From Ignavibacteriota bacterium (GTDB lineage Bacteria > Bacteroidota > Ignavibacteria > SZUA-365), in contig JACRFB010000063.1 in the NCBI GenBank assembly GCA_016218045.1, positions 68,226 through 132,225 of the forward strand: DNA of 64,000 nucleotides, given 5' to 3'. A model generated the notes under the pieces. The model did not search any database, had not been told where the DNA came from, and saw only the letters and a list, made by a program, of their open reading frames with translations. The number at the start of each line of letters is the position of its first letter. The first letter of the stretch is position 1. A program made the translations under genes and the position numbers. Shown here one piece after another: positions 33,995 to 56,460 of the stretch.

Positions 33995-34006
33995 GCCGTC
34001 GCGCCC

Positions 34007-35128
34007 CTAATCCAATGTCACCTTGAAACGTTTGATCGCAATGGCGAGAATACCAGCGCCTATGCCCGCGAGCGCGAGCGTTTCGGGTAGAATATCGGAA
34101 ATACCGACCCCTTTCAGCATAATACCGCGGATGATGACCAGATAGTACGTCGCGGGAAGCGCGCGCGACACAAGCTGCAGGGGCGCGGGCATGCTCGCGA
34201 TGGGGAAGAGGAAGCCGCTCATGAGAAAGGTCGGAAGTATCGTCGACATCACCGTCATAAGCATCGCTATCTGCTGCGATTTGGCGATGGTGGAAATGAG
34301 CAGGCCGAAACTGAGCGCGACAAAGATGTAGACGACGGACAGGACGAGGAGAAGAAGGGGACTGCCCACCACGGGTGTTCCGAACAGCGCCATGGCCGAG
34401 ACCACGATGAGAGCGCCGTTGGCCATACCGATGAGCACATAGGGCAGAACCTTCCCGATGATGATCTCGACCGGGTGTATGGGCGAGACGAGGATCTGCT
34501 CCATCGTGCCCGATTCCTTCTCTCGCGTGATGGTGATGGAGGTGAGCAGCGCGCTGGTCAGCATGAGGAGCAGGGCGATCAGTCCGGGCACAAAAAAGTG
34601 CGTGCTCTTCATGTCGGGATTGTAGAGGATTTTTGGTTCCACCGTTGCGAGCGACGCCTGCACGATGCCCTGCGATTGATTGAAGAGGCGAAATACGTTC
34701 GCCGCGTACGTGCCGACGTAGGTTCCGACATTCGAATCGGTCGCATCAACGAGCACCTGCACTTTGACGGACGGTCCTGTGCGCAGGGCCTGCGCGAAGT
34801 CGCGCGGAATGACCAGCACCATCTTTGCGTTGCGCGAGCGGAAGATCTCCTCCGCCGCGGACGCGGCACCCGCATACCCTGCAAAGTGAAAAAAGCCGTT
34901 GCGGCGGAACGCATCGATGAGCGCGCGGCTCTCGGGCGTGTGCGAATCGTCGACGACGGCAAAATCGATGTTACGCATGTCGAGCGTGATGCCGTAACCG
35001 TAGAGGGCGATCATCAGCACCGGCATCAGGAGCACTATCATCAACGAGCGGAAATCACGGAGTATGTGGATCAACTCCTTGCGCATGATCGCAACCAGGC
35101 GACGTGGCATTCCGCGCATCTCCGTCAC
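34007..35128 (-). CDS. ABC-2 type transporter permease (paralog)
   Basis: Same architecture as the neighbouring permease. 4-nt overlap with the upstream ATPase. Confidence 0.7.
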   Translation of the reverse strand: MTEMRGMPRRLVAIMRKELIHILRDFRSLMIVLLMPVLMIALYGYGITLDMRNIDFAVVDDSHTPESRALIDAFRRNGFFHFAGYAGAASAAEEIFRSRNAKMVLVIPRDFAQALRTGPSVKVQVLVDATDSNVGTYVGTYAANVFRLFNQSQGIVQASLATVEPKILYNPDMKSTHFFVPGLIALLLMLTSALLTSITITREKESGTMEQILVSPIHPVEIIIGKVLPYVLIGMANGALIVVSAMALFGTPVVGSPLLLLVLSVVYIFVALSFGLLISTIAKSQQIAMLMTVMSTILPTFLMSGFLFPIASMPAPLQLVSRALPATYYLVIIRGIMLKGVGISDILPETLALAGIGAGILAIAIKRFKVTLD

Positions 35129-35886
35129 CCCTCCCTCGAGGACTTGGCGCGCGCCGTCTCGTCGCGGACCAGCTTCATGAACACGTCCTGCATGCTGTCG
35201 AAGCCGTGCGCGCGCTTGAGTTCACCCGGAGTGCCGAGCGCGATGAGACGGCCGCCGTGCATGATGGAAAGCCGCGAGCAGTATTCGGCCTCGTCCATGT
35301 AGTGCGTCGTGACAAACACCGTGGTCCCCTTTGCGGCGAGTTCGTAAATGAGCCGCCAGAAATTGCGCCGCGAAATGGGATCGACGCCGCCGGTCGGTTC
35401 GTCGAGAAACAGGATGTGCGGATCATGCAGCAGCGCCGTGCCCAGGGCCAGGCGCTGCTTCCAGCCGAGAGGCAGGGAATTGGTCACACGGTCGGCATGT
35501 TCCTCAAGGCGAAGTTCCGCCAGCAGGGCCTCTGTCTTTACTCGCAGTTGTGCGCGTGTCAAACCGTACACGCCCCCGTAGAATTCGATGTTGTTTCTGA
35601 CCGTCAAATCTTCATAAAGCGAGAACTTCTGGCTCATGTATCCTATCGAGGCCTTTACACTCCGCGCTTCGCGCGCGATGTCGAAACCTCCGACACGCGC
35701 GGTACCTCCGCTCGGTTTGAGCAGTCCGCACAGCATCCGTATCACCGTGGTCTTGCCGGCGCCATTCGCACCGAGAAATCCGAACACCTCGCCGCGGTGC
35801 ACCCTGAGCGACACGGAATCCACGGCGCGGAACGCGCCGAAATCCTTTGTGAGCTCGCGCATATCGACAGCAACATCAGTCGTCAT
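35125..35886 (-). CDS. ABC transporter ATP-binding protein
   Basis: Walker A GANGAGKTT, signature LSGGMKQRL-like (LPLGWKQRLALG), Walker B ILFLDEPT. Start taken at MTTDVAVDMREL. Confidence 0.8.
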   Translation of the reverse strand: MTTDVAVDMRELTKDFGAFRAVDSVSLRVHRGEVFGFLGANGAGKTTVIRMLCGLLKPSGGTARVGGFDIAREARSVKASIGYMSQKFSLYEDLTVRNNIEFYGGVYGLTRAQLRVKTEALLAELRLEEHADRVTNSLPLGWKQRLALGTALLHDPHILFLDEPTGGVDPISRRNFWRLIYELAAKGTTVFVTTHYMDEAEYCSRLSIMHGGRLIALGTPGELKRAHGFDSMQDVFMKLVRDETARAKSSREG

Positions 35887-36823
35887 TGGGCGCCGTCTCG
35901 ATAAGGTGGATGAACACGTCCTCCAGCGTTGGCTCCGCGGGTTCAAGCGAGCCCTCACGCAGTTTCAGCGCGCGCTCGGCTGCCGCGCGGCCCGCTCCGT
36001 CGAGCGGCCGTTCCGTGGCCACGTGAACACGATCGCCGAAGCTGTGGACGGATCGTATGCCCGGACCTTCGCCATCGTCGAGTCTGATCAGCGACGAGAA
36101 CGCGTTTCCGTCTGCTCTTTCGCGTGGTGCGCTGTACATCGAGTACGGATACGATGAAATGATCTCGGCGGGTGCGCCCGAGGCGAGAATGCAGCCCTCG
36201 TTCATGATCGAGATGCGGTCGCAGAGCAGGGCTTCATCCATGTACGGCGTCGAGACTAGCACTGTGACACCGCGGTCGCGCATTGCGCGGAGAATGGACC
36301 ACAGCTCCTGCCGCGACACGGGATCGACGCCTGTTGTCGGCTCGTCAAGCACAAGCAACAGCGGATCGTGGATGAGGGCGCAGGACAGCGCGAGCTTCTG
36401 CTTCATGCCGCCGGACAGCCGCCCCGCCAGCCGCGTCGCGAATGGATCGAGCCGGCTGAAACGGTACAGTTCCTTTTTCTTCTCTGTCAACTCCGCCTGG
36501 GGTACGCCGAAGAGGTCCGCAAAAAAATCCAGATTCTGTTCCACCGAAAGATCGGGATAGAGGGAAAAGCGCTGTGGCATGTAGCCGATCTTCGAGCGTA
36601 TCTCGGTGCGGCCTGTGCGCGTTTCGTGGCCGAGCACGGTGACAGTGCCGGCATCCGGCGCAAGCAGCGTAGTGATGATGCGCATCGTCGTCGTCTTGCC
36701 CGCCCCGTCGGGTCCGATAAGTCCGAACAACTCCGCGGGACGAATCTCGAGCGAGACGTCGCGCACCGCTTCGGTTGCGCCGAAAGATTTCGACAAAGAT
36801 GATATGGAAACGGCAGGCGTCAC
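35876..36823 (-). CDS. ABC transporter ATP-binding protein (second NBD subunit)
   Basis: GPDGAGKTT, LSGGMKQKLAL, LLVLDEPT. Probable GTG start at 36823 forming a GTGA overlap with the hlyD-like stop. The ORF-track N-terminus overlaps the upstream gene. Confidence 0.65.
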   Translation of the reverse strand: MTPAVSISSLSKSFGATEAVRDVSLEIRPAELFGLIGPDGAGKTTTMRIITTLLAPDAGTVTVLGHETRTGRTEIRSKIGYMPQRFSLYPDLSVEQNLDFFADLFGVPQAELTEKKKELYRFSRLDPFATRLAGRLSGGMKQKLALSCALIHDPLLLVLDEPTTGVDPVSRQELWSILRAMRDRGVTVLVSTPYMDEALLCDRISIMNEGCILASGAPAEIISSYPYSMYSAPRERADGNAFSSLIRLDDGEGPGIRSVHSFGDRVHVATERPLDGAGRAAAERALKLREGSLEPAEPTLEDVFIHLIETAPNDD

Positions 36824-37707
36824 GGTATGTCGAGTGTCACGGTCAGAGGCATGCCGATCTTGATTTTTCCATCGGGATTGTCGAGCCGCACCTTCGCCGC
36901 AAACACGAGCGTGGTGCGGGTCTCCTCGGTGAGGATGGTCTTGGGTGTGAACTCGGCCTTGTCGGATATCCAGGTCACCGTGCCGTGCAGCGATACATCG
37001 GACGCGCTGTCGATGCGGATGGTCGCCTTCTGTCCGACGGACACCGACGCGAGATCGGTCTCTGCGATGTAGATGCGCGTCCACATACTGCGAAGATCGG
37101 CGATGTCGCAGATGGGTGTGCCGGGCATGGCGAGTTCGCCGGGATCCGCATATCGCACCAGGACACGGCCGTCGAGAGGCGCCACGATGGTCGCCTCGCC
37201 GATCTGCGTCTTCAGGAGGCCGACAGTGGAGGCCGTCTGCGCCTCCTTGCTACCGAGAGCGGCGTGTTGTTTCTGCAGGCTGCGGATTTGGGCATCGGAC
37301 CCGTCGAGCTGTGCGCGTGCGTCGTCGACGGATTGCCTCGTGGTCGCGTTGTCGCGCAGCAGCGCCTCGAGACGCTGCAGGCGCGTGTGCAGATTCTCAC
37401 GCGTGATGCGCGCCGCGGCGATCTGCGCGTCGAGGGCCGCGCGCTGATGCGCCAGTTCCTCGCGAACGGAGCCCGCCTGCGCCGCCTGCAGTTCAAGTTT
37501 GTCGACACGCACAGTGGCAAGGACGGAATCGGCGCGCACGTCGTCGCCGTCGTCGATCAGAACCGAGGTGATGGTGCCCGCCGTCTGTGCGCTTACACGT
37601 ACGATGCGCGCTTCGGCGGTGCCGGTGTACTCGAACGCGGAGTTCTCGCCGCCGCCGCATCCGGCCAGGACCGCGAGGACGAACAGGGAAGAGAGGAATG
37701 GGCGCAT
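36820..37707 (-). CDS. HlyD-family membrane fusion (periplasmic adaptor) protein
   Basis: Lipoprotein-like signal LAVLAGCGG. Coiled-coil region (QAGSVREELAHQRAALDAQIAAARI). C-terminal beta-domain. Confidence 0.7.
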   Translation of the reverse strand: MRPFLSSLFVLAVLAGCGGGENSAFEYTGTAEARIVRVSAQTAGTITSVLIDDGDDVRADSVLATVRVDKLELQAAQAGSVREELAHQRAALDAQIAAARITRENLHTRLQRLEALLRDNATTRQSVDDARAQLDGSDAQIRSLQKQHAALGSKEAQTASTVGLLKTQIGEATIVAPLDGRVLVRYADPGELAMPGTPICDIADLRSMWTRIYIAETDLASVSVGQKATIRIDSASDVSLHGTVTWISDKAEFTPKTILTEETRTTLVFAAKVRLDNPDGKIKIGMPLTVTLDIP

Positions 37708-37754
37708 GGGGAATGTTCTCACTGTGCGGGGAAAGGTGATGCGACGACGGGGTG

Positions 37755-39071
37755 TCATTGTGCGTCTCCGATTTCACGGCCGACGGCCTGTACGAGATCG
37801 ATCCGTTTCAGGAGATACTCGATGCGGGTTTGCGCGTGTTGCAGCAGAGAGCGTGTCAGCGCCGTTTCGGCGTCAAGCACGTCGGCGGGGATGGCTGTGC
37901 CTTCGCGCAGCCGCGCGCGGGCGATGTCGAGGCGCGTGCGCTCCTGCTGTATCTGCCGGTCCAGGAGGCCGATGGTCGCCGCGCGTGTGTCGAGATCGAG
38001 TAGGAGCGCGCGAATGCCGGTTTCGAGGCGGTTGCGCACCTGCTCCACACGAAGGGCCGAGGCACGCTCCTCGAGCTGCGCCTTTTCGATGGCGTGTTTA
38101 TCGGCGGACCAGGCCCAGAGATTCCATTCCATCTTCACACCGGCCGTGTAATAATCCATCCATTCGTTCCGGATCTGATCGACGCCCGGACGAGCGTAGT
38201 GCAGCGACGCGACAGCCGCAACGGTCGGGTACATCGACGACTCGGCCGCGGTGATCCCGAGTTCCGCCGAGCGCTGAGCCGACGCCGCGACCAGCAGGTC
38301 GGCGCGCGACGCGGCGGCCATCGCTATCAGGACTTCAGCGGAGGGGAGGGCGGAAGGTGGCGAAAGGTCTGTCGTGTCCACGCCGCCAATGTCGGTGGCG
38401 CCGGTGAGTTCCACGAGCGAGAGAAGTGCGGTGGCGCGCGCGTGGCGCGCCTGCGTGGCCTCGACATCGAGCTGCAGTATCCGTGTGGACACGAGCAATG
38501 TATCGAAGGCGAGACCCTGACCCTGCTCCGTCAGCGCGCGGCGGAGATGCAGCAGTTCCGCAAGCAGCGCGCGCTGTGACTCGAGGATGCCTGCAGCGTA
38601 TGTGGCCTGCACTGCCGCGTAGTAAAGGCGCGCCGCCGCACAGCGAGCGTCGAAGGCCGCGCCATCGGCCGCGGTCGCAGCGGCCGCGCTGTTTTCACGG
38701 GCGATGCGGTTGTGCGCATCCAGGCGGAATCCGGTGAAGAGCGGCGCGCTGAGGGTGACGGCTGCGTCGGCCACATTGCCGTCGCCGAAGGATATCGTTT
38801 TGACGGGCAGTGGAATGCCTGGAATCTGCAGATCGATTTTTCCGGTCTCGCTGATGCGTGTGTACGAAAACGAGGCGTCGAGGCGCGGCAGCCGCGAGGC
38901 CGAGGTCATGTCGGCCTGTGCGCGCGCCTTCTCGGCGCCGGCGCGGGCGATGCGCACCCCGTGCCCGTATTCCGCGGCCCGGCGCTGCATTTCATCGAGC
39001 GTGACAATGCGCGGCTGCGCCGCTGCAGTGAGCGACAGGAGACAACAGCAGAGGAGGAGTTTTCGAGTCAT
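37755..39071 (-). CDS. TolC-like outer-membrane efflux protein
   Basis: Internal start MTRKLLLCCCLLSLTAAAQP (signal peptide) forming an ATGA overlap with tetR. Two OEP repeats. Confidence 0.7.
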   Translation of the reverse strand: MTRKLLLCCCLLSLTAAAQPRIVTLDEMQRRAAEYGHGVRIARAGAEKARAQADMTSASRLPRLDASFSYTRISETGKIDLQIPGIPLPVKTISFGDGNVADAAVTLSAPLFTGFRLDAHNRIARENSAAAATAADGAAFDARCAAARLYYAAVQATYAAGILESQRALLAELLHLRRALTEQGQGLAFDTLLVSTRILQLDVEATQARHARATALLSLVELTGATDIGGVDTTDLSPPSALPSAEVLIAMAAASRADLLVAASAQRSAELGITAAESSMYPTVAAVASLHYARPGVDQIRNEWMDYYTAGVKMEWNLWAWSADKHAIEKAQLEERASALRVEQVRNRLETGIRALLLDLDTRAATIGLLDRQIQQERTRLDIARARLREGTAIPADVLDAETALTRSLLQHAQTRIEYLLKRIDLVQAVGREIGDAQ

Positions 39072-39712
39072 GCGTGTGTTCTCCGTGTCGACAATCCATG
39101 ATACACGAGGTCGAAAATGTGTTCGCGTCTGCGCGCAGCGAAGGCGGCAGGATCCCCGGCGATGTCGGGGGCGATGCTCTTGAGGAGCGGTATCGCGAGG
39201 TAGAAATAGACGCAGCTCCCGAGTACGGTAATGAGGGTCTGCATCGGATCCACTTTCCGGATTTCCCTGCGCCGGATGGCGCGCTCGACGGCCAGAAGAA
39301 ACGCGCGCGGAGGAAACGCCGGATCGTTCGCCACCCGCGCGAAGTGCACCGCCAGGTTCGTTGCGCCGGTCGACAGTTCGCGTGTCATGAAGCCGACCAG
39401 CGCGGGCGTGCGTTCCAGCATGTCCATGTAGGTGCAAATAAACGCGCGCAATTGCGACGCAAAATCCTTTTCTTTCGACAGGGACGCCGAGAGCACCATA
39501 AAATGTGTGCGCAGCATGTACGAGAATACCTCCTCGTACAGACGGTCCTTGGATCGGAAGTAATAATGCACCAGCGCCGGATTGATCCCCGCGCGCCGCG
39601 CTATGTCACGCATGCGCGCGCCGCTTTTTCCATGTTCCCCGAACACGTCGAGCGCCGCCAGGAAAATGGCGCTTTCGGTGTCGGAGTATTCGCGCTGGTC
39701 GATGCTGATCAT
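39068..39712 (-). CDS. TetR-family transcriptional regulator
   Basis: HTH RMRDIARRAGINPALVHYYFRSKDRLY. First gene of the efflux operon. Confidence 0.8.
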   Translation of the reverse strand: MISIDQREYSDTESAIFLAALDVFGEHGKSGARMRDIARRAGINPALVHYYFRSKDRLYEEVFSYMLRTHFMVLSASLSKEKDFASQLRAFICTYMDMLERTPALVGFMTRELSTGATNLAVHFARVANDPAFPPRAFLLAVERAIRRREIRKVDPMQTLITVLGSCVYFYLAIPLLKSIAPDIAGDPAAFAARRREHIFDLVYHGLSTRRTHA

Positions 39713-39785: not shown

Positions 39786-40319
39786 TCAGAATTCCGCGCG
39801 GTGTATCACCGGGGAACAGGAGGCACAGAATTCCGCGGGTTTGATGTCGATGTCCTCGACGTAGGTCGAGGCGTTCATGACGCAGGGTTCGTCGGCGCAG
39901 TGGCGCAGTCCGTAGGTGTGCCCGAGTTCGTGCAATGCCTCCTTGAATGAACGGCGGCGGAGCAGATGCGACGACGGCGCCAGACCGTAGAGATCGTTGC
40001 GCAGACGGAACGAGGAAAAAATGCAGGCGCGGGCGGCCAGTTGCGCCTGTCCGAAAATGTAGGTGAGCACGGGCAGAAAAAGATCGTGCGAGGTGACGCC
40101 GAGCAGTTTCGTCTTGCCGGGTGGAGCAGTGTCGAGCAGCATCTGCAGGATTCGTCCGCTGTGGTACTGCCTGCGCGAGGCGTCGTATGCCTCGCGGATG
40201 GGGACGGGCAATGCGCCGACCGTGACACGGGCCGCGAGCACCTGGCCCAGATCCGCGGCGAATTCGTCGAGAGACAGGTCGCGGTCGGCTTCGAGCGGGA
40301 TGAGCAGAATGTCCGTCAT
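39786..40319 (-). CDS. Archaemetzincin-family zinc metallopeptidase (M54)
   Basis: HELGHTYGLRHCADEPCVMN is the HEXXHXXGXXH-C-x4-C-x-M archaemetzincin signature. Confidence 0.65.
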   Translation of the reverse strand: MTDILLIPLEADRDLSLDEFAADLGQVLAARVTVGALPVPIREAYDASRRQYHSGRILQMLLDTAPPGKTKLLGVTSHDLFLPVLTYIFGQAQLAARACIFSSFRLRNDLYGLAPSSHLLRRRSFKEALHELGHTYGLRHCADEPCVMNASTYVEDIDIKPAEFCASCSPVIHRAEF

Positions 40320-40332
40320 TCCTTCGTCACCG

Positions 40333-41694
40333 CTATTCCGGCCGCTTCAGTCCGTACTTTTCGATCTTATTGTACAGTGTGACACGATCGATGGCCAGCC
40401 GCTCGGCGGAGCGGGTGATGTTCCAATTCATCTCCGAGAGCACCTGCACGATATGCCTGCGCTCCACATCCGCGAGACTCTCGCCGGCTGCGCCCGCGGC
40501 CCGCGTCGAGAGATGCATGGGCAGATCCTCCTCCTCGATGAAAGGCCGCGACGACACAACCATCGCGCGCTCAACCGCATTCTCGAGTTCACGCACATTG
40601 CCCGGCCACGCGTACGTCGTAAGCAAAGACATGGCGCCTTCGGAAAACTCCTTCGCGGTGCGATTCATCAGCCGCGCGTACTTGTGCACAAAATGTTCCG
40701 CCAGCATCGGTATGTCGCCCCTCCTCTCGCGCAGGGGCGGTATCGTGATCGCAAACACGTTGATGCGGTAGTACAGGTCCTCTCTGAACGTCCCGTCGCG
40801 CACGGCCGCCTCGAGGTCGGCATTGGTCGCACAGATGAGACGGAAATCCACGTGTATGGTCTGCTCGCCGCCCACGCGCTGGAACTGATGCGATTCGAGC
40901 ACGCGCAGCAGATCCACCTGGGTCTTGGGCGCAAGTGTGCCGATTTCGTCCAGGAACAGTGTTCCGCCATTTGCCATTTCGAATTTCCCTTTGCGTCTGT
41001 ACTGCGCGCCCGTGAACGATCCCTTTTCATGTCCGAAGAGTTCGCTCTCGAGCAGCGACTCCGACAGAGCGCCGCAGTTTACGGGGATGATGGGGAAGTA
41101 CTTCCGTGTGCTGTTCGCGTGTATTGCCCGCGCGATCAACTCCTTGCCCGTGCCGCTTTCGCCGCGTATCAGCACGGTCGATTTTGTCGGGGCCACGGTG
41201 CGGACGAGGTCGAATACCTTCACCATCTCCTCGCTCGCTCCGACGATGTCGTCGATATGATGCAGCGCGTCGACGGTCTGGCGGAGCTGCGCATTCTCTC
41301 GCGCGAGGCGTCGCTGCTGCGCCGCGTTGCGTACCATCGTCGAGAGCTCGTCGGGGTCGATCGGTTTGGTTACGTAATCGAAGGCGCCTGCCTTGAGGGC
41401 TCGGACGGCGGTGTCGACCGACGCGAACGCCGTGATGATGATGATGATGATGTCGGTATCGAATTCCCGGATGCGTTCCTGCAGCGCAAGGCCGTCCATG
41501 CCGGGCATCTTGATGTCCAGCAGCACGAGATCGATTCGTTCGCGCTGCAGGATGTCGAGGGCGGCGGCGGCGTTCTCGGCCGTGTGTACGCTGTAGCCGT
41601 CCTCGAGGAACCATTGTTCCAGGGATTCGCGGACGGACGCTTCGTCGTCAACGACGAGCAGGTGTATCGACGAAGTGGAGAGGGGATCGGTCAT
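40333..41694 (-). CDS. Sigma-54-dependent response regulator (NtrC family: REC + AAA+ + Fis-HTH)
   Basis: LLVVDDE...D(54-like) receiver. GESGTGKE Walker A. GAFTGA-like loop (EKGSFTGA). ESELFGHEKGSFTG. C-terminal HTH. ATGA overlap with the kinase gene. Confidence 0.85.
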   Translation of the reverse strand: MTDPLSTSSIHLLVVDDEASVRESLEQWFLEDGYSVHTAENAAAALDILQRERIDLVLLDIKMPGMDGLALQERIREFDTDIIIIIITAFASVDTAVRALKAGAFDYVTKPIDPDELSTMVRNAAQQRRLARENAQLRQTVDALHHIDDIVGASEEMVKVFDLVRTVAPTKSTVLIRGESGTGKELIARAIHANSTRKYFPIIPVNCGALSESLLESELFGHEKGSFTGAQYRRKGKFEMANGGTLFLDEIGTLAPKTQVDLLRVLESHQFQRVGGEQTIHVDFRLICATNADLEAAVRDGTFREDLYYRINVFAITIPPLRERRGDIPMLAEHFVHKYARLMNRTAKEFSEGAMSLLTTYAWPGNVRELENAVERAMVVSSRPFIEEEDLPMHLSTRAAGAAGESLADVERRHIVQVLSEMNWNITRSAERLAIDRVTLYNKIEKYGLKRPE

Positions 41695-43304
41695 GATGCC
41701 TGGTATTCTCTGTGTGTGTTTTCTGTGTCGCCTGAAACAGGAAGGGAGATGATGAAGGAACTGCCGTGTCCGGGCTCGCTCTGCACGGTGATGTCGCCGC
41801 CATGCTGTTTGACTATGCCGTACACGATCGAGAGGCCGAGGCCCGTGCCGAAGCCGCTTTCCTTCGTGGTGAAAAACGGTTCGAAGACGCGCTGCAGATC
41901 GGCGGCCGAGATGCCGATACCGGTGTCGGTGACGCGCAGCAGTGTGCGCCCTGCGTCGGTTGCGGCGTCCACGGTTAACGTGCCGCCGTCCGGCATGGCT
42001 TCGATCGCATTGATGAGCAGCGCGATGAGCACCTGCTGCAACTGCGACTCGTCGCAGTACGCGCGGACGGAAACGGGCGGCGGCTCGTAGCGCACCTCGA
42101 TCTGCTGCAGGTCGATCTGGTGCTGGACGAGGCGCAGCGAGCGCTCGATGAGCGTGTGCAGATTGCAGACCGCCCGCGACTGTGGATGCGCGCGCGCAAA
42201 AAACAGCAGGTTGCGGACGATGTCTCCGCAGCGCCGCGCCTCCTCTGCGATGATGTCGAGGTCGCTATTGATGCGCGCCAGCTTCTCTTGGTCCACAGTG
42301 TCGCGGAGCCGCTTGCGGCTCAATTTCGCAAGAGTCAGAATGCCCGAGAGCGGATTGTTCAACTCGTGTGCAATCATCGAGCTCAACTTGCCGAGCGACG
42401 CCATTTTTTCCATGTGTAGAACCTGCTCCTGCATCGACTGCAGTTCGCGCGTCTTCTGGTTCACCTTCTGCTCGAGTGTGTTCGACCAGTCGAGCAGCTC
42501 GTTGCGCGCGCCGTCCAAGTCAGCCGCCATACGGTTGAAGGCCTCGGCGAGACGCCCGATCTCGTCGGAACGCCGAGTCGTGATGCGGTGCCGCAGGTTT
42601 CCGGAGGCGATTTCGCGCGTGCCCGCGATCACTTGTTTCACCGGCCGATGCACGCCGACAAAGACAAAAATGGCGGAGACCGCGGCGACGGCGAGCAGGG
42701 TCACAACGGCCGAGGCGAGTTGCAGCAGTACACCGTCGTCGATGTGTTTGTCGGCGTATTCGAGACTCATCTGCACGTCGAGCACACCCAGCACCGTCTG
42801 TTCTTCGGAGTGGGCGTGACAGGCGGCATCCCAGCACCCGCGCTCGTTGCGTATCGGGTTGATGAAGCCAAGCACGCGATGACCCGACGGAGCGTAGTAC
42901 TTGCGCGCGTACTGATCGGAACTGGTCTTCACAAAATCGGAACCGCCGCCGTGGCACATGATGCAGGCGTCGGCCTTCACATCCACCACGTGCCCGATCT
43001 CAGAGAGCGAATCCGAATACTTGATCACCCCGCGCTTGTCGTAAATGCGAATGTGATCGATGCCGCGCAGGGATCCGAGATCCTGGATGATGGAACTCAG
43101 CTCCGACGAGTTGTTCTCCGACATACTTCGCCGCAGGGCCTGCTTGGTCATCTCGCTGGTGCGTTCCACCGCCTCCTGCACCGTCTGCTCGAGCGTTTCC
43201 CTCTGCGCGCGGATGCTGAATATCGTCGTCCCCAGCAGCACGACCGCGAGCGAGAGCACGAGAATCGTGACGATCTGAAGACTGAGCGAGCGGAAGATGT
43301 TCAT
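41691..43304 (-). CDS. Sensor histidine kinase with periplasmic domain carrying putative c-type heme-binding motifs
   Basis: TM1 - about 160-aa periplasmic segment with CIMCH (CXXCH) and CWDAACH (CX4CH) - TM2 - HAMP - HisKA (SMIAHELNNP) - HATPase (GTGLGLSIV). The start is approximate, because my hand translation around 43310-43325 disagreed with the ORF track by one base. Confidence 0.75.
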   Translation of the reverse strand: MNIFRSLSLQIVTILVLSLAVVLLGTTIFSIRAQRETLEQTVQEAVERTSEMTKQALRRSMSENNSSELSSIIQDLGSLRGIDHIRIYDKRGVIKYSDSLSEIGHVVDVKADACIMCHGGGSDFVKTSSDQYARKYYAPSGHRVLGFINPIRNERGCWDAACHAHSEEQTVLGVLDVQMSLEYADKHIDDGVLLQLASAVVTLLAVAAVSAIFVFVGVHRPVKQVIAGTREIASGNLRHRITTRRSDEIGRLAEAFNRMAADLDGARNELLDWSNTLEQKVNQKTRELQSMQEQVLHMEKMASLGKLSSMIAHELNNPLSGILTLAKLSRKRLRDTVDQEKLARINSDLDIIAEEARRCGDIVRNLLFFARAHPQSRAVCNLHTLIERSLRLVQHQIDLQQIEVRYEPPPVSVRAYCDESQLQQVLIALLINAIEAMPDGGTLTVDAATDAGRTLLRVTDTGIGISAADLQRVFEPFFTTKESGFGTGLGLSIVYGIVKQHGGDITVQSEPGHGSSFIISLPVSGDTENTHREYQAS

Positions 43305-43430
43305 CGGAGGTCCCGGAAGGGAACAAAGTGGGCGACACAAGCTACCAAATCTCGCGCATGTCCACAACGGCGGACGCGAATGGAAACGGGCCCGAAGGCC
43401 CGTATCCGATCATTACTGAGACCTCGCGGC

Positions 43431-44234
43431 CTACACCTCGGCGTCGGCCGAGCGCGGATACAACACGCCGCGGACAAGTTCCATGTACGCGGCCTCTCCG
43501 AAGGCCTCGTCGAGCGCCGACACTGTCTCGCCGCCGTCGTTGAGGCAGATGCCTCCGGGGGCGAGATGCGTTTCGAGACGGCGTGCTGCGCGGCGCATAA
43601 ACGTCGAGAGCACGGCCTCCTCCGCGATACGCGCGCGGGCCGGAGGTAGCATCGCCGGCCGCTCCGCGTCGTGTTTGGACGGAACGATACAAGCCAGCCA
43701 GCCGAGATCATAGGTGTTGGTGCGCAGGAACACGGGATCCTCACAGAGCTGCCTGTTCTGCCGGACCAGTGTTCCCGTGAGCGGCGACAACACGGGCAGC
43801 ACATTCGTGTGTGTGTAGATCCACGCGATCGGCCTGCCGCGTTCCACGGATTCGCTCATCGCGGGAAACACGATGCGGGCGGATGGCGGGAGCAACAGAG
43901 AGAAGGGATGGGTGATGCCCAGGTACGCGAGTTTGACGTCGTGGAAACGCGCCCAGGTATGGTCCGTCGAGTACGCCAATCCCTCGTGCAGATGCGAGGC
44001 GGTGAAGCCGCGGAGCAGCCGCACAATTGTTTCGTCGCAGGGGACAGGCAGGGGCACCTGCAGCGGCATATCCACTTCCGCGTCGGCCGCCGCGGGTCCC
44101 TGCTTGTCGTCCTTACGGAGCACGTGATCCAGCGGACATCGGTCGCAGTCAAATGCGCGGTCGCAGAGCTTGTAGGTGAGTATGCCCGCGTCCATCCAAA
44201 CGCATTTGCCCTCGGTATTCCTGGAGCCGCTCAT
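43431..44234 (-). CDS. Hypothetical protein with N-terminal Cys cluster and GcvH-like (hybrid-barrel) domain lacking the lipoyl-lysine
   Basis: C-x12-C-x5-C-x2-C near the N-terminus. HTWARFHDVKLAYLGITH...SPLTGTLV...YDLGWLACI parallels GcvH (HEW...GIT...SPVSG...PY..GW), but R replaces the ESVKA lysine. Confidence 0.4.
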   Translation of the reverse strand: MSGSRNTEGKCVWMDAGILTYKLCDRAFDCDRCPLDHVLRKDDKQGPAAADAEVDMPLQVPLPVPCDETIVRLLRGFTASHLHEGLAYSTDHTWARFHDVKLAYLGITHPFSLLLPPSARIVFPAMSESVERGRPIAWIYTHTNVLPVLSPLTGTLVRQNRQLCEDPVFLRTNTYDLGWLACIVPSKHDAERPAMLPPARARIAEEAVLSTFMRRAARRLETHLAPGGICLNDGGETVSALDEAFGEAAYMELVRGVLYPRSADAEV

Positions 44235-44282
44235 GTCTACTCCCGTGAGTCGTGTGAATCCAAGCGTGGTGAATAATAGCGG

Positions 44283-45497
44283 TCAGGAAACGGACACTTC
44301 GACCGTACCTTTCGGTGCTTCGCCTTTCACCGGACGGGCGGCCGAGAGGCGCACGGTCTGGTGTTTCTCCTCGTGCGAGATATCGGCGAAGATCGGGAGA
44401 TGTTTGACCGCGAAGCCGAACACCCAGAAACCGACTGTCACCACTGCAAGCGACACAAAAATCTCGCCGACGGAGGGGAAATACACGCCACCGTAATACG
44501 GTTCAATCGAAGTGAGCGCTACGTTGAGGCGGTTGGTGACAAAACCCAGCACCACCGACATGGCGCAGAGCGACAGGCCGAGACGCGTCTGCCCGAAGCC
44601 ACGGATGTTGAAGAGCACGATCGGCAGGACGAAGAACAGGGCGAGTTCCACGAGCAGCATGATTGTTTGCAGCGAGCCGTCGAGAAGCGCGAACTTGTTG
44701 CCGTGCACCATGTCGATCAAACGCATGGTTACGTACACAGTGGCGACACCGATCATTGCGCGGGCAAGGTCTCGCAGCAATGGCGTCTCGAGCGCCTTGT
44801 TAAAGACACGCGCGCTGAGGTACGACTCGACAATGGTCATCGCCAGGCCCACGGTGACGGCCGACACGAAGAAAAACACCGGCAGCATCGGCGAGTACCA
44901 GAAGGGATGCATTTTCTCGGGGATGATGAGATAGAGACTGCCAAGCGAGGACTGGTGCAGCATCGACAGGAGGATGCCCGCGACAACAAGCGGTATCGTG
45001 ATGGCCTTCATGATCTTGAGCAGGCGTGTCATCTTGAAGCGCTCGAGCACCACCGGACTGAATTCGAGGGCAAGCACCGTGGTGTAGAGCATCACACACC
45101 AGGCCACTTCGAACATGACCGAATGAGGATTCCACATGATGATCGCATGCCAGATCGACCAGGGACGTCCGAGGTCGAACATGAGACCCACGATCACGAG
45201 CAGATAACCGAGGAAGGCCGTCAGTACCGTCGGACGGACGATGGCCTTGAAGCGTTTCAGATTGAACACGTACACAATACCGCACAGAGTGAATCCGCCG
45301 GCGGCCAGACCCACTCCGGTGACAACATCGAAACCGATCCAGATGCCCCACGGTGCGGCATCGGAGAGATTGGTGGCCTTGCCGAGCCCGAAGGCAAAAC
45401 GCATGACGGCCGAGACGAGTCCGCCGAGCACAAAAAATGCGCCGAGGATCTTCCAGAAGGACAAGTGTTTTTTCAGGGATATCATGGACGACCTCAC
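44283..45497 (-). CDS. NrfD/PsrC-family polytopic membrane (quinone-interacting) subunit
   Basis: About 10 TM helices. NrfD-like motifs (SLYLIIPEKMHPFWYSP). 4-nt overlap with the upstream Fe-S gene. Confidence 0.75.
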   Translation of the reverse strand: MRSSMISLKKHLSFWKILGAFFVLGGLVSAVMRFAFGLGKATNLSDAAPWGIWIGFDVVTGVGLAAGGFTLCGIVYVFNLKRFKAIVRPTVLTAFLGYLLVIVGLMFDLGRPWSIWHAIIMWNPHSVMFEVAWCVMLYTTVLALEFSPVVLERFKMTRLLKIMKAITIPLVVAGILLSMLHQSSLGSLYLIIPEKMHPFWYSPMLPVFFFVSAVTVGLAMTIVESYLSARVFNKALETPLLRDLARAMIGVATVYVTMRLIDMVHGNKFALLDGSLQTIMLLVELALFFVLPIVLFNIRGFGQTRLGLSLCAMSVVLGFVTNRLNVALTSIEPYYGGVYFPSVGEIFVSLAVVTVGFWVFGFAVKHLPIFADISHEEKHQTVRLSAARPVKGEAPKGTVEVSVS

Positions 45498-46249
45498 TTC
45501 GTGCTGTTGTTATTGCGTTGGGATTCTTCGAACCGCTTCACTTCTTCGCGACGATGCGTGATCCAGTAGATCGCGGAGAAGGCCGCTCCCGCCGTCACAA
45601 CAACGTCGGGCAGTTTGGAAAGCACATTCCACGTTTTCTGCGGAAGCGCTTCGGATCCGATTTCGGTTTTGAATCCCAGTTTCTCGAAAGGCACGCTCGA
45701 GAGGAAGAGAACGGACATGCCGCCAATTTCCTTTTCGCCATAGATACGATGGACGTAGTTGTCCGGATTCTCGCTGATGCGGCGGTGCGCCTCGGCGAGC
45801 AATTCGTCGCGTTTCCCGAACAGCGTCGCGCCTGCGGGACACGCCTCGCTGCAGGCCGTCGGCTGTCCCTTCGACGTGCGTTCGTCGTAACACATGGTGC
45901 ATTTACGCACGCGGGGATTGTTGCTGCTCCACTCGTACTTCGGAATGTCGAACGGACAGGCGAGCATACAATAGCGGCAGCCGAGGCACTTCGAAGCGTC
46001 GTAGTTCACCGGGCCGGCCTTGGTCTTTTCGAGCGCACCGACGGGGCACACCGAGCCGCAGGCGGGCTCGTTGCAGTGGCGGCACATGCGGCGGACCCAG
46101 GTATCGCCGTATTGTTCGAGCGTCGTGAAATTCTTTTCGTTCAGATTGCGCGCCTCGATCTCGGGGAACCCGTGCGATTTCTGGCAGGCTGTACGGCATT
46201 CGCCGCAGCCCACGCACTGGGTGATGTCGATGAGAAGGGCATAGGACAT
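45494..46249 (-). CDS. NrfC/DmsB/HybA-like 4x[4Fe-4S] ferredoxin subunit, no Tat signal, C-terminal TM anchor
   Basis: Four Cys clusters (CVGCGECRTAC; CRHCNEPACGSVCP; CLGCRYCMLACP; CTMC...CSEACP). Starts directly at MSYALLIDITQC with no twin-arginine leader. Hydrophobic tail VVVTAGAAFSAIYWI. Confidence 0.75.
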   Translation of the reverse strand: MSYALLIDITQCVGCGECRTACQKSHGFPEIEARNLNEKNFTTLEQYGDTWVRRMCRHCNEPACGSVCPVGALEKTKAGPVNYDASKCLGCRYCMLACPFDIPKYEWSSNNPRVRKCTMCYDERTSKGQPTACSEACPAGATLFGKRDELLAEAHRRISENPDNYVHRIYGEKEIGGMSVLFLSSVPFEKLGFKTEIGSEALPQKTWNVLSKLPDVVVTAGAAFSAIYWITHRREEVKRFEESQRNNNSTK

Positions 46250-46356
46250 TGTACTATCCTTGAAATTGTGTGGGTGGTATCAGTCGTCGTGTGGTCAGGG
46301 GAATTGCGGACAGGGAAGAGTCCCGCGGCCGCTGAGCCGGGGCCTCCATCATTTCC

Positions 46357-47025
46357 TCAGCGGAGAAATTCCTGTTCGAAGGTGTGCAGAGCTTCAGTGT
46401 CGAGATGTTCGAGCGAACCGGCAACCGCGACGCCGCCGTCGAGCATGGTCTCGCCTGCAAACGCCGGCTGCATCGCCTTCGCATGGAGGAATTCGCGGAA
46501 ACGCGCCGCCTCATTCCTGATCCACGTCACAGCACTCTCGGCGATCGACATCACGGAGAGGTTTGCCGCGAGCTGATCCGGCGCCACCGAAAACAACCAG
46601 CCCTCATCATATGGATTCGCGTCGATGAGCGCAGGGTTGTCGATCACATCGCGGTTGATCGCGATCACGGTGCCCGAAACCGGGGCGACAAGAGACAAAG
46701 CACGTCCGCCGCGGGACAGTGTGATCACGGGATCTCCCTGATTCACCTTCTGGCCGATGAATGGCAGTGTAACGTTCTCGATTGTGCCGAGCGCCTTCTG
46801 AATAAAATCATCAACACCAACAACCACATCGTCGCCGCCGCTCATGCGCGCCCACGTGTGCGCAGGATGGAAAAATATACCCTTGGGCATACGGACCACA
46901 TCCGACGCCGCTCCCTGCGCCTTCAGGACGGGCGACATCAGCGGATACTTCTTGTGGCGGATCTGAATTACCAGATCGATCGTCAACAGGGTGACGACAA
47001 ACAGGATGACGAATAATGCTACCAT
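46357..47025 (-). CDS. Membrane-anchored GcvH-like (glycine-cleavage H-fold) protein, non-lipoylatable
   Basis: N-terminal TM (VALFVILFVVTLLTIDLVI). HTWARMSGGDDVVVGVDDF...APVSGTVIAINRDV...ANPYDEGWLFSV matches the GcvH fold, but the lipoyl-Lys position is Arg/Gly. Confidence 0.5.
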   Translation of the reverse strand: MVALFVILFVVTLLTIDLVIQIRHKKYPLMSPVLKAQGAASDVVRMPKGIFFHPAHTWARMSGGDDVVVGVDDFIQKALGTIENVTLPFIGQKVNQGDPVITLSRGGRALSLVAPVSGTVIAINRDVIDNPALIDANPYDEGWLFSVAPDQLAANLSVMSIAESAVTWIRNEAARFREFLHAKAMQPAFAGETMLDGGVAVAGSLEHLDTEALHTFEQEFLR

Positions 47026-47084: not shown

Positions 47085-47100
47085 GAAATCATCCGCAATA
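47085..47100 (-). promoter_or_regulatory. Candidate sigma-54 (-24/-12) promoter for the GcvH-like/NrfCD-like operon
   Basis: Minus-strand sequence TGGTGC-GCTTA-TTGCG follows the consensus TGGCAC-N5-TTGCW, with GG and GC 11 nt apart. About 60 nt upstream of the 47025 start, and next to a sigma-54 activator gene. Confidence 0.3.
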
Positions 47101-47242
47101 AGCGCACCAGACTCGTTTGTCTCTTTTTCCGCATTTTTCAACACTTTTTTCTTACATCCCGACCGTTGACAATTCAGCGACTGTTGGATAATTCATCGGG
47201 AATCCAAAGGGGATTTATAAACCGAATGAAAATATTCACATA

Positions 47243-47283
47243 TACAAAAAACGGTGCCGTTGAAATTATCAACGGCACCGTTG
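47243..47283 (-). terminator. Rho-independent terminator downstream of the methyltransferase gene, inside an AT-rich island
   Basis: Perfect 13-bp inverted repeat ACGGTGCCGTTGA / TCAACGGCACCGT with a 5-nt loop. An A-tract on the + strand gives a U-tract for the minus-strand transcript. Confidence 0.5.
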
Positions 47284-47300
47284 TGATATTCATCAGTACG

Positions 47301-47981
47301 TCAGGCGGATCTGAAGAGATAGAGGAACTTCCGGGGGAAGCGAACGGGCAGCAGACGAAGCACGGTGGTGAGTGGTCGCGTCAGAGCTAAGCGAGGGAAT
47401 AATGCCATGAGCCGGAAATGTGTGAGGTAGGGTCCCTCTACCGAACACGTGCCATCGGGCTGCATGGCCAGAATATCAGCCCAGGAATGATAGACCCAGG
47501 AGTCCGTTCGCGAGTGCCCGCCGGAAAGATCGCTGTCGCCGACGAAAGCGACGACACCACCCGGAGCGAGGAGCAACACCATTCGGCGTATATAGTCTCG
47601 CACGTTTTCAATATCACGTGTATTCATCACACTCATGCCCAGCGAGAAGATGCAGTCGAATCTCTCGTTTGTTTCAAACGACAGCGCATCGGCGGCGATG
47701 AAGCCGACCTGCGGGAAGCGTTGCTCCGCGATTGCGATTGCACGTGCACTGATGTCGATTCCCGTCACCGTGCAGCCCGCCTCGTGAAACAGGCCGGAGT
47801 AATACCCTGTGCCGCAGCCTACATCGAGAACCCGCGCACCGGCTTTCAAACCGCAGATACCCATGATGGAGCGAACCGCCCCCATTGAAACTGCTCGGGG
47901 ATAATAGGCGAATTCCGACGTGTTATAGAAATCGTCGTACTGCTCGCGAAGTCTGTCGGTATCTTTGCCGCCGCTGTTCAT
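47301..47981 (-). CDS. Class I SAM-dependent methyltransferase
   Basis: Motif I VLDVGCGTGYYS, post-I GIDIS, motif II/III region. Internal start MNSGGKD was used. Confidence 0.7.
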   Translation of the reverse strand: MNSGGKDTDRLREQYDDFYNTSEFAYYPRAVSMGAVRSIMGICGLKAGARVLDVGCGTGYYSGLFHEAGCTVTGIDISARAIAIAEQRFPQVGFIAADALSFETNERFDCIFSLGMSVMNTRDIENVRDYIRRMVLLLAPGGVVAFVGDSDLSGGHSRTDSWVYHSWADILAMQPDGTCSVEGPYLTHFRLMALFPRLALTRPLTTVLRLLPVRFPRKFLYLFRSA

Positions 47982-48139
47982 TCGTCGCGCGAAAAGTGAG
48001 TGGAAAGCCGGTTGTTTCCAAACGTGTGAAGTGGGATTTTGTAACACTTCGCGGTGCACGCCGGTATTAGGCCGATCCGTGCTGCCGTCCGCGCACGCCA
48101 TTCCGATACTCCCGCCTGTCTCATTCCCCGGGGTTTCCC

Positions 48140-54605: not shown

Positions 54606-54638
54606 CCATGCCGTCCGAGAGGGCGGCATGGTTTTTTT
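54606..54638 (+). terminator. Rho-independent terminator after the S9 peptidase gene
   Basis: CCATGCCG-tccgagagg-CGGCATGG followed by TTTTTTT. Confidence 0.6.
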
Positions 54639-54744
54639 ACGGGGGATTGTGTGTGCATGGATGAGGGTGTGCATTGCCCGGACGGGAGATGGGAACGTAT
54701 ATTCGGATAATGAAATCGTGAATAGTTCTTTCGCGGGGGTGTCC

Positions 54745-56460
54745 ATGCGTGGTCGTGCTGTGTGGTGCGGAGTGTGTGTGGGTGTCATGCTGCTGTGTGC
54801 AGGCGCGGTGCGGGCGCAGGACAGTTTCTTCGACCAGGCGTTGCGCGGGCCGCGCGGGGTGTGGTCCACAGGCATGGGACTGTCGGGCGTCGCGCGCGCG
54901 ACACCCGTGGTGGGCTTCTCGTACAATCCCGCGGCGTTTGCGCACGCGACACGGACCACTGCGACGCTGTTCCGCGCGCCGACATACTCGTGCTGCGATC
55001 CGATCGTGCTCCGCACAGCTTCGGTGGTGACTCCCATGCCGCTGCTTGGGGGTGTTATAGGATTGGAGGTACTTGACGACAACTTTGGAGAAGTGTATTT
55101 CGGCAGCGATGGGAACCTCGGCCTGTATGCCGACTCACGGATTATCGGCGTCGCCCTCGGATTCGGCACATCTCTCGGCGAAGACGTGGCGATAGGCGCG
55201 GCCTTCCGCGTGTTGGAAAACACCATAGAAGCTGATCGACAGGAAAGTGGCCTGCACAGCACTGCTCATCACATCGGAATGAGCATTGGGGTGCAGTACA
55301 ATCCCGACATCCTCGACAGACGGCTGCGGGCCGGTCTGGCGATCCTGGAAATGGGTCCGGAAATCGTGTACATCGACGAGGCGCAAGCGGACCCCGCGCC
55401 GACCTCGCTGCGTTTGGGTCTGGACGCGGAGCTTGTCGACGATGGCACCGTGTCGCTTCCGCTTACAGTGGAAGTGTCGAAGGGACTCATCAAGCGGGGG
55501 CACGAATATCGTGCACGTCCCTCCTGGGAGGCGCTGTTCAGCGACTGGAATGCGGTGCCGCGCGACATGGTGTTGCATCTCGGAATCGGATTCCTGTGGC
55601 GGCCACTCGCGCTCGGAAACGGGTGGACGTTCGCAACAGGCGTGGCCGTCGGCAATGCGAGTGTGGGACCGGAATATCCCACCCTCAATTTTCGCAACCA
55701 GTTCACAGCGTCGTACACCACTTCAGTAGAAAAAGACGGATACAGCGTGGAAGTGGGTGTGGCGACAAGCTGGCATCGATTGCCGATATACAATTACTCG
55801 GGGATAGAACCGCCCACGCTGCCGAACGACATGTTCGAGGCGACGGTGTCGGTGCCGTGGGCGCCGGGTGCCGCCACGATCGCCGCTGCTCCCGCCGTGG
55901 CGCTCGAGCACATCACACTATCCCTCGGCGCCGGTTTCCGCTCCTATAGCGGATGGGCCGCGCCCGCTGAGGGCATCGTGTATCGCGACGCGCTCGACCT
56001 GGAAGGCGACGCCTCCTTTGCGCTGTCGCCACACAGCGCCGTGGCCTTGACGCTGCAGCACACACGCGGCGACGTCGACGTAATGTTTCCGATGAACGAG
56101 ACAGATCCGCCCGTCGTGTACGACACGTACCGGCATCGCGGCTGGACCGTGCTTTCGTCGTATCGGCTGCATCCGCTCGAGCAGTTCCGCGCGCTCTTCA
56201 TCGGCGCGGGGGCCGGCATCGTCTACGACCAGCATGGCACCTCGAACCGGCTGCGCATGCTCGCTATGCGGAAGGCGCTGCATCCCGCCTTCGCCGTGGA
56301 GGCCGGTGTCGACTGGCCCGCGGCGGGACACCTTGTGCTCACTCCCCACGTGCGCTGGACACTCGTGCCCGGAAAAATCGAACACGGCGAACCACTGCGC
56401 CTCGGCGCGTATCACGCACTTTCTTTCGGTGTGCGTGTGGGATGGCGGGAGGGAGAGTAG
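54745..56460 (+). CDS. Hypothetical secreted/outer-membrane protein upstream of giant T9SS cargo gene
   Basis: Internal start MRGRAVWCGVCVGVMLLCAGAVRAQ (signal peptide). Alternating hydrophobic patterns suggest a beta-barrel. No catalytic motifs. Confidence 0.3.
   Translation: MRGRAVWCGVCVGVMLLCAGAVRAQDSFFDQALRGPRGVWSTGMGLSGVARATPVVGFSYNPAAFAHATRTTATLFRAPTYSCCDPIVLRTASVVTPMPLLGGVIGLEVLDDNFGEVYFGSDGNLGLYADSRIIGVALGFGTSLGEDVAIGAAFRVLENTIEADRQESGLHSTAHHIGMSIGVQYNPDILDRRLRAGLAILEMGPEIVYIDEAQADPAPTSLRLGLDAELVDDGTVSLPLTVEVSKGLIKRGHEYRARPSWEALFSDWNAVPRDMVLHLGIGFLWRPLALGNGWTFATGVAVGNASVGPEYPTLNFRNQFTASYTTSVEKDGYSVEVGVATSWHRLPIYNYSGIEPPTLPNDMFEATVSVPWAPGAATIAAAPAVALEHITLSLGAGFRSYSGWAAPAEGIVYRDALDLEGDASFALSPHSAVALTLQHTRGDVDVMFPMNETDPPVVYDTYRHRGWTVLSSYRLHPLEQFRALFIGAGAGIVYDQHGTSNRLRMLAMRKALHPAFAVEAGVDWPAAGHLVLTPHVRWTLVPGKIEHGEPLRLGAYHALSFGVRVGWREGE

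Follow-up and report, generated by a model that had tools for sequence, protein, structure and literature searches.

The window analyzed here is a 64,000-nucleotide stretch of an Ignavibacteriota bacterium genome (Ignavibacteria, SZUA-365; assembly GCA_016218045.1, contig JACRFB010000063.1, positions 68,226 to 132,225 of the forward strand). Its minus strand encodes two paralogous proteins, here called A and B, that share the fold of GcvH (i.e., the H-protein of the glycine cleavage system) and have no lysine at the position where GcvH is lipoylated. Judging from the alignments, the lysine has been lost family-wide, and A and B are not lipoyl carriers. They are encoded in a cluster of seven tightly spaced genes in the order A, iron-sulfur (Fe-S) protein, NrfD-type membrane protein, B, histidine kinase, sigma-54 regulator, and Peptidase_M54. 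The family and its gene module are real, conserved, and made of known parts, and they are apparently undescribed. Most probably, A and B do not serve as metabolic carriers but belong to a respiratory switch, in which their role would be regulation or docking.

An earlier note, written from the DNA letters, had assigned both proteins to the GcvH fold, and the database comparisons bear this out; both open reading frames (ORFs) lie on the minus strand at the coordinates given there. Both proteins passed the gathering cut-off (22.2 bits) of the Pfam family GCV_H (PF01597), A with 78.7 bits (E = 4.6e-22) and B with 43.6 bits (E = 3.4e-11). AlphaFold models built from the family alignments (pLDDT, 83.3 for A and 83.8 for B) were compared with solved structures by Foldseek. 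The model of A matched the H-proteins 1onl and 3ab9 with TM scores of 0.92 to 0.93 and root mean square deviations (rmsd) of 1.4 to 1.6 Å, and that of B matched solved H-proteins with TM scores of 0.82 to 0.88 (rmsd, ~2.0 Å); 1onl, 3ab9, and 3hgb were among the structures matched by the two models. All of the significant fold matches were H-proteins, with biotinyl/lipoyl domains appearing only at E > 0.005. An HlyD-type or biotin-lipoyl adaptor fold, which the earlier note had named as the outcome that would overturn its reading, was rejected (Biotin_lipoyl, 13.8 bits; cut-off, 22.1 bits), and no other fold competed. The H-protein landmarks H-x-W, P-x-S/T-G, N, and G-W are retained in both sequences. 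The two proteins are 27% identical by BLASTP (E = 8e-18), and their profiles align across 187 columns in hhalign (E = 1.8e-45). A and B are therefore paralogs on a true GcvH fold, as had been proposed.

At both ends, A and B carry domains that were found in no solved H-protein. The C-terminal extension of ~70 residues is common to the two paralogs and consists of a long helix that leads through a loop, bearing an invariant (D/T)GG, into two short helices; no solved H-protein has a counterpart of it. At the N terminus of A, residues 2 to 22 are hydrophobic (Kyte-Doolittle value, 2.95) and are followed by RHKK, and the model predicts a helix over residues 2 to 25. Membrane tethering, which one phrase of the earlier note extended to both proteins, holds for A and not for B. 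The N terminus of B carries four cysteines inside the motif C[VI]WMxAGxxx[YF]KLCDx4Cx2CxxD, and C11, C24, C30, and C33 are kept in 260 to 265 of the 267 B-type relatives, among which these residues and the C-terminal GG are nearly invariant. This module matched no Pfam or NCBIfam model and has no sequence relative in the PDB. The "Cys4 cluster" of the earlier note thus stands as a conserved four-cysteine motif, and the bound metal or cluster is putative (either Fe-S or Zn).

The loss of the lipoyl-lysine was confirmed by alignment with Escherichia coli GcvH. The column of K65 (precursor numbering) holds Gly108 in A and Thr143 in B, and B therefore has neither the Arg nor the Gly that had been read there before. 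Every bona fide GcvH in the same alignment (126 to 135 residues) has Lys in this column. Among the 267 B-type relatives, the column is occupied by Gly (70), Asp (42), Glu (34), Ser (28), Asn (20), and others, with Lys in only 7; most A-type relatives have Gly there, with R, K, or H at the +1 position. Against the curated GcvH equivalog models TIGR00527 (cut-off, 115.85 bits) and NF002270 (cut-off, 117 bits), A scored 73.4 and 85.6 bits and B scored 37.2 and 44.1 bits, and neither protein reached the cut-offs. The gene survey of the window found no gcvT, gcvP, or lipoylation genes. Likewise, no lipoate ligase, gcvT, gcvP, or sHdr gene was among the recurrent neighbor families of 85 related loci, as grouped by a single-linkage clustering that merged the kinase, regulator, and GcvH-like genes, picked up some antisense ORFs, and was used qualitatively only. 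Since the lysine, the curated thresholds, and the genomic partners all fail, A and B should not be filed as GcvH or as LbpA, the lipoate-binding protein of the sHdr system.

A and B thus resemble GcvH in fold and landmarks and differ from it in the missing lysine, the sub-threshold equivalog scores, the added membrane helix or Cys4 module, and the GG extension. Their neighbors also differ, being a sigma-54 two-component system, an M54 peptidase, and NrfCD-type genes instead of gcvT and gcvP. Other divergent H-folds outside glycine cleavage are known, i.e., GcvH-L of Streptococcus and Staphylococcus, chlamydial "not_gcvH" (TIGR03077), "GcvH_rel_desulf" (NF045810), and LbpA. A and B scored 20 to 51 bits against TIGR03077 and NF045810 (cut-offs, 144 to 150 bits). 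GcvH-L and LbpA retain a modifiable lysine and adjoin ligase, sirtuin, and macrodomain genes or sHdr genes, and the lysine is what A and B lack. The LbpA assignment was therefore rejected, and with it the analogy to the sHdr system drawn in the earlier note, which had also asked whether lipoate ligase genes co-occur with the cluster; none is a conserved neighbor. An HdrD-like CCG protein is encoded near the B-type gene in only 7 loci, all from Desulfobacterales (762 amino acids [aa] with two Fer4 domains plus CCG domains in L064:6581-8869, minus strand, and similarly in 6 other loci).

The family is widespread. A search of 1.84 billion representatives with a profile of the B-type proteins retrieved 680 clusters (50% identity) at E <= 1e-30, and a motif pattern applied to 185,579 species-level genomes located at least 391 places with confirmed relatives. 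The window is almost the same in sequence as an Ignavibacteriota metagenome-assembled genome (MAG). The best 80 loci came from Ignavibacteria, Bacteroidota, Planctomycetota, Acidobacteriota, Poribacteria, Gammaproteobacteria, Desulfobacterales, and Syntrophobacteraceae. In public sources, the members are named "glycine cleavage system protein H" or "hypothetical." Hundreds of genomes carry the former label on these proteins, and any metabolic reconstruction that enters them as GcvH is in error, since they cannot carry lipoate. We found no paper or curated model describing the family; our literature search returned nothing relevant tying GcvH or GcvH-like proteins to NrfD, sigma-54, Cbc, or archaemetzincin, and a paper on the sigma-54 regulome of Desulfovibrio vulgaris does not mention the family. 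The family represents a swinging-arm carrier fold that was recruited without its cofactor to a new role, with new N- and C-terminal modules.

The features of the cluster are listed in Table 1. As the earlier note had described, A and B bracket an NrfCD-like pair. The Fe-S protein between them matches Pfam Fer4_11 and, among NCBIfam models, is nearest to HmcB/HybA, as the membrane protein is to HmcC/HybB; it scored 239 bits against HmcB (cut-off, 420 bits) and 204 bits against HybA (cut-off, 263 bits). The membrane protein matches Pfam NrfD and scored 328.6 bits against HmcC (cut-off, 550 bits) and 283.8 bits against HybB (cut-off, 450 bits). These two central genes are hence members of the NrfC and NrfD superfamilies that fall below every NCBIfam equivalog. 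From B onward, the kinase, regulator, and M54 genes follow at spacings of 63, -4, and 13 nucleotides (nt), respectively. Translation of the kinase probably begins at the ATG at 43304, 21 codons downstream of the annotated TTG. The peptidase scored 74.7 bits against Pfam Peptidase_M54 (cut-off, 24.4 bits), and its translation contains the HExxHxxGxxH and Cys4 motif (HELGHTYGLRHCADEPCVM...CASC) by which archaemetzincins are defined (PMC3427221). At the other end, the operon is delimited on its 5' side by the terminator-like hairpin, which closes the upstream gene for a class I methyltransferase (47301-48101).

Table 1. Features of the seven-gene cluster and of its upstream region in the window.
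Feature	Coordinates	Strand	Description
Candidate sigma-54 (-24/-12) promoter	47094..47109	-	TGGTGCGCTTATTGCG; GG-N10-GC spacing correct; ~70 nt 5' of the start of A
Terminator-like hairpin	47250..47282	-	14-bp stem with 8 G-C pairs, T run; very strong
Protein A	46357..47025	-	222 aa; membrane helix, residues 2-22; linker; GcvH fold, ~46-160; C-terminal helical extension with D196-G197-G198
HmcB/HybA-like NrfC-type protein	45494..46249	-	251 aa; four Fe-S cluster motifs; C-terminal hydrophobic helix
HmcC/HybB-like NrfD-family membrane protein	44283..45497	-	404 aa; ~10 transmembrane helices
Protein B	43431..44234	-	267 aa; C11-x12-C24-x5-C30-x2-C33 module (codons 44204-44136); GcvH fold, ~84-190; C-terminal helical extension with L-N-D-G-G, residues 231-235
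Sensor histidine kinase	41691..43367	-	Two transmembrane helices around a periplasmic domain; HAMP, HisKA, HATPase
Sigma-54-dependent response regulator	40333..41694	-	REC, AAA+ sigma-54 activator domain, Fis-type helix-turn-helix
Peptidase_M54 (archaemetzincin-like)	39786..40319	-	177 aa; HELGHTYGLRHC...C..M...C..C; without signal peptide

We called ORFs in 91 fetched loci and labeled them with the seven window proteins. The order A-FeS-NrfD-B-kinase-regulator-M54 recurs in Ignavibacteria, Bacteroidota, Acidobacteriota, Poribacteria, and Gammaproteobacteria (MAGs). Linkage was counted in those 39 loci where the B-type (i.e., Cys-type) gene is flanked by 6 kb or more in each direction. The companions of this gene were the sigma-54 regulator (36/39), the kinase (34/39), M54 (30/39), an A-type gene (24/39), and NrfD (22/39), and no further gene family recurred around it in the 85 loci. 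A-type genes occurred in 20 of the 22 loci with NrfD and in 1 of the 17 loci without it (Fisher p = 6e-8), which suggests that A is a piece at the NrfCD module. The independent linkage of B to the kinase, regulator, and peptidase suggests that B is the core of the regulatory unit. The conservation of the seven-gene cluster, the C-terminal (D/T)GG extension, and the spread of B without NrfCD go beyond the earlier note, which made no link between the A/B pair and the kinase, regulator, or peptidase.

Several variants of this arrangement were observed. In Planctomycetota, the order is B-A-FeS-NrfD-multiheme cytochrome, with the kinase and regulator divergent. One distant A-type gene is followed directly by kinase, regulator, and M54 genes, without NrfCD. 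A-B pairs stand alone in two loci (L017 and L052), L054 has an extra pair, and L053 has a similar pair of adjacent GcvH-like ORFs. P0292 (413 aa) is a natural tandem duplication of the membrane-anchored module. Together with the free-standing pairs, this tandem fusion suggests that the two modules work together. The Cys module is also repeated, with two copies in Desulfobacterota proteins of ~313 residues (e.g., P0080; 312 aa) and four in proteins of ~443 residues (e.g., P0116; 443 aa). In the Desulfobacterota loci, a second pair (i.e., a PAS kinase and a PAS-sigma-54 activator) is often added. P0073 (L010:7745-8893) and P0240 (from a Candidatus Eisenbacteria MAG) are membrane-anchored fusions of a transmembrane helix, a REC domain, and a GcvH-like domain, and the P0073 gene follows a cytochrome c7-FeS-NrfD-kinase-REC cluster without a sigma-54 activator. 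Judging from the REC fusion, the GcvH-like module can be a phosphorelay output at the membrane, beside an NrfCD-cytochrome cluster. Our survey of domain fusions among the relatives returned only REC, the repeated Cys4 modules, and the tandem duplication. In L002, a hot-spring-type metagenome locus, a Rieske/cytochrome b/multiheme cytochrome cluster (L002:2466-7531, minus strand) lies divergent from an A-FeS-NrfD-B operon.

The periplasmic domain of the kinase has one CxxCH motif (CIMCH; approximately residue 135 of the ORF), which is found at the same place in all of the ~50 membrane kinases of the related loci. As CxxCH is the general heme-c attachment motif, this suggests a covalently bound heme c that may serve as the sensor. 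A candidate sigma-54 promoter (TGGTGCGCTTATTGCG) precedes A, and the closest relative (L001) has TGGTACGGGAATTGCG at the equivalent position; the enhancer-binding protein that such a promoter needs is encoded beside the candidate operon. Among the related loci, the density of sigma-54-like sites (<=2 mismatches) is 0.99 per kb over the 350 nt that precede the leading GcvH-like genes versus 0.05 per kb in the loci overall (i.e., a ~20-fold enrichment).

The membrane topology was deduced from charges and fusions. No positive charge precedes the helix of A, and RHKK follows it; the A-type proteins of Planctomycetota have a two-helix hairpin and then a basic stretch. Because receiver domains act in the cytoplasm, the REC fusions P0073 and P0240 place the GcvH-like module on that side. 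From the positive-inside rule and these fusions, we infer that the GcvH-like domain of A is cytoplasmic. No signal sequence was found in B, the regulator, or M54. The N-terminal and even-numbered loops of NrfD are rich in K/R both in the window and in a Planctomycetota locus, and this bias puts the NrfD N terminus in the cytoplasm with the same orientation in the two. The Fe-S subunits fall into two kinds (that of the window was compared with L008:9756-10739, L029, L056, L058, L063, and L068). In the window, as in every Ignavibacteria and Bacteroidota-type locus, the subunit has no signal peptide, whereas the Planctomycetota-type ortholog carries a canonical Tat signal (SRRDFV) and is followed by a multiheme cytochrome. 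By its signal, the latter Fe-S subunit is predicted to be periplasmic. With cytoplasmic A and B domains, as predicted, and a periplasmic Tat-bearing Fe-S subunit, A and B cannot both simply dock on it.

On the basis of these data, we tentatively propose, as a reading that is plausible though somewhat short of even odds, that A and B are non-lipoylated proteins acting on the cytoplasmic side of the membrane, where they would serve a redox-responsive two-component regulon of the sigma-54 type as effectors or docking components. The kinase would sense the periplasmic redox state through its c-type heme and phosphorylate the sigma-54 response regulator, which would then switch on the promoter 5' of A. 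The operon would yield an HmcBC-like quinone-interacting module plus A and B. A would be anchored by its N-terminal helix beside NrfD, with its GcvH-like domain in the cytoplasm, and soluble B, with its Cys4 site (Fe-S or Zn), would pair with A through the common GcvH-plus-C-terminal-extension module and report or modulate the state of the system. The M54 peptidase would be a likely processing or turnover partner. In this scheme, the topology, the A-B pairing, the contact with NrfD, the Cys4 metal, what the protease does, and which physiological signal is sensed are all inferred. The docking role suggested in the earlier note is plausible for A, whose type tracks NrfD; B is not tied to NrfCD. 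We set aside the idea that M54 exposes the C-terminal GG motif, for which co-occurrence alone speaks.

A more specific version appears possible but doubtful. The cluster may be a control module for anaerobic respiration in which a de-lipoylated H-protein fold serves as a signaling or effector part; the Cys4 form would sense cytoplasmic redox state or metal, and the membrane paralog would tether it to NrfCD, all governed by the heme-c kinase, the sigma-54 activator, and the archaemetzincin. We know of no established function for archaemetzincins in prokaryotes, and this version, if true, would give the bacterial ones their first physiological context. The linkage to a sigma-54 two-component system, an archaemetzincin, and NrfCD offers a testable way into the regulation of electron-transport branches in anaerobes such as Ignavibacteria, Bacteroidota, Planctomycetota, and Desulfobacterota.

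A number of observations weigh against the proposed regulon. The signal-less Fe-S subunit fits no settled geometry or sidedness of a membrane complex. The Cys module of B, besides having no solved relative, is modeled at a low pLDDT (55 to 62). The promoter site in the window has 3 mismatches to TGGCACGN4TTGCW, and a strict scan (<=2 mismatches) returned no site upstream of A in the window. Planctomycetota-type loci are without M54, and the protease is therefore not obligatory. In Desulfobacterota (i.e., Desulfobacterales and Syntrophobacteraceae), only the Cys-type gene is present, beside M54-regulator-kinase, with neither A nor NrfCD nearby; B may have another essential partner there, and its function may be unrelated to NrfCD. 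Moreover, the contacts proposed between A and B, A and NrfD, and B and the regulator are drawn from gene linkage and module sharing.

In a different explanation, B (and A by extension) would be an effector that works alone in stress or metal handling, for example, as a protein that binds or buffers a metal or an Fe-S cluster or as the dedicated substrate or partner of M54. Its expression would be the real output of the two-component system, and the adjacency to NrfCD in some lineages would reflect co-regulation only. The Cys-type gene of Desulfobacterota, which encodes 2 to 4 Cys4 modules, is the sole nonregulatory gene between two sigma-54 systems and M54, often with its own sigma-54-like promoter. 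The near invariance of the Cys4 residues and the C-terminal GG, as well as the frequency of M54 among the neighbors, is also in keeping with this explanation. However, the correlation of A-type genes with NrfD and the fixed A-FeS-NrfD-B order argue for a physical link where NrfCD is present, the membrane-anchored REC fusion adjoins an NrfCD cluster, and metal binding by B is only putative. We regard this explanation as unlikely.

Alternatively, A and B may be redox subunits of the NrfCD complex itself. The Fe-S protein would then be cytoplasmic, A would be a membrane anchor, and an Fe-S cluster in B would relay electrons to or from the quinone pool, with a cytoplasmic donor or acceptor at the other end. 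The absence of a signal on the Fe-S subunits of all Ignavibacteria and Bacteroidota-type loci, where no periplasmic cytochrome is encoded, would suit such a complex, as would the tight linkage of A to NrfD. The C-x5-C-x2-C spacing in B resembles those of Fe-S sensors and ligands, such as the FNR and Wbl motifs. There is also a weak, sub-threshold likeness to the N-terminal barrel domains of NqrA and RnfC, at 15 bits (NQRA_N; cut-off, 25 bits) and 13.1 bits (RnfC_N; cut-off, 25.6 bits) for A and 24.8 bits (NQRA_N) for P0073. Cytoplasm-facing complexes of the NrfD family do exist, e.g., SoeABC (PMC8076601). Nevertheless, the same N-in NrfD occurs in Planctomycetota-type loci together with a Tat-bearing Fe-S subunit, a 13-heme cytochrome, and both A and B, and many genomes have B without NrfCD nearby. 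We know of no electron-transfer chain that consists of one Cys4 site on a GcvH fold, and the charges around the C-terminal helix of the Fe-S protein appear to resemble those of periplasmic FdnH/HybA-type anchors. We therefore consider redox subunits rather improbable. Finally, it is very improbable that A and B work as lipoyl carriers, whether of the ordinary kind or somewhat divergent (GcvH/LbpA-like), with the modification on another lysine: although they pass the GCV_H threshold, are named GcvH in public sources, and include some A-type members with Lys directly after the lysine column, that +1 position is not a conserved Lys, and this reading was rejected on the lysine column and the curated cut-offs, with the conserved neighbors and the extra terminal domains also against it.

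Among known systems, the Hmc, Nhc, and Hyb modules (HmcBC, NhcBC, and HybAB) likewise combine an NrfC-type protein, which has four clusters and a C-terminal helix, with a 10-helix NrfD-type protein, and the Planctomycetota-type relatives have a Tat signal and a multiheme cytochrome, as do Nhc and Hmc. The window differs from these in that its Fe-S protein has no signal peptide, no cytochrome or catalytic subunit is encoded, and there are two GcvH-like proteins in addition. None of the complexes listed in a review of the NrfD family has H-protein-like subunits (PMC8076601). The BccR-controlled cbcBA operon of Geobacter sulfurreducens, which is sigma-54 dependent and induced at low redox potential, has a quinone-linked inner-membrane module, small uncharacterized first proteins, a receiver protein, and an adjoining sigma-54 regulator (bioRxiv 10.1101/2021.04.15.440034). 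It is the closest functional analogy that we found. It differs in that its membrane module is a diheme cytochrome b with a heme-c protein and not NrfCD, and no M54 is mentioned; its GSU0597 and GSU3489 are annotated only as hypothetical and are likened to A and B by operon layout alone. The Psp system (PspF and PspA) follows a comparable logic, in which a sigma-54 activator adjoins a sigma-54 operon that begins with the gene for a membrane-associated effector, and this effector could in turn act back on the activator. Only the layout is alike, with no sequence or fold relationship, and Psp-like feedback by A or B would be conjecture.

Other parts of the window were also annotated. Directly downstream of M54 lies an efflux cluster (32867-39712, minus strand) encoding TetR, TolC-like (OEP), HlyD-like, and ABC/ABC-2 transporter proteins, of which TetR and OEP are syntenic in L001. 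A 574-aa ORF (28741-30465, minus strand) has no Pfam match at E <= 1e-4 and shows good coding statistics, with a G+C fraction at third codon positions of 0.72. Three plus-strand regions (10687-12996, 54628-56460, and 56702-63091), whose content agrees with an origin in the Bacteroidota/Ignavibacteriota group, hold genes related to type IX secretion (for a PorZ-like propeller and a protein weakly matching PorV) and one for a surface protein of 2129 aa in which DUF7948, PKD, and Ig-like domains were recognized.

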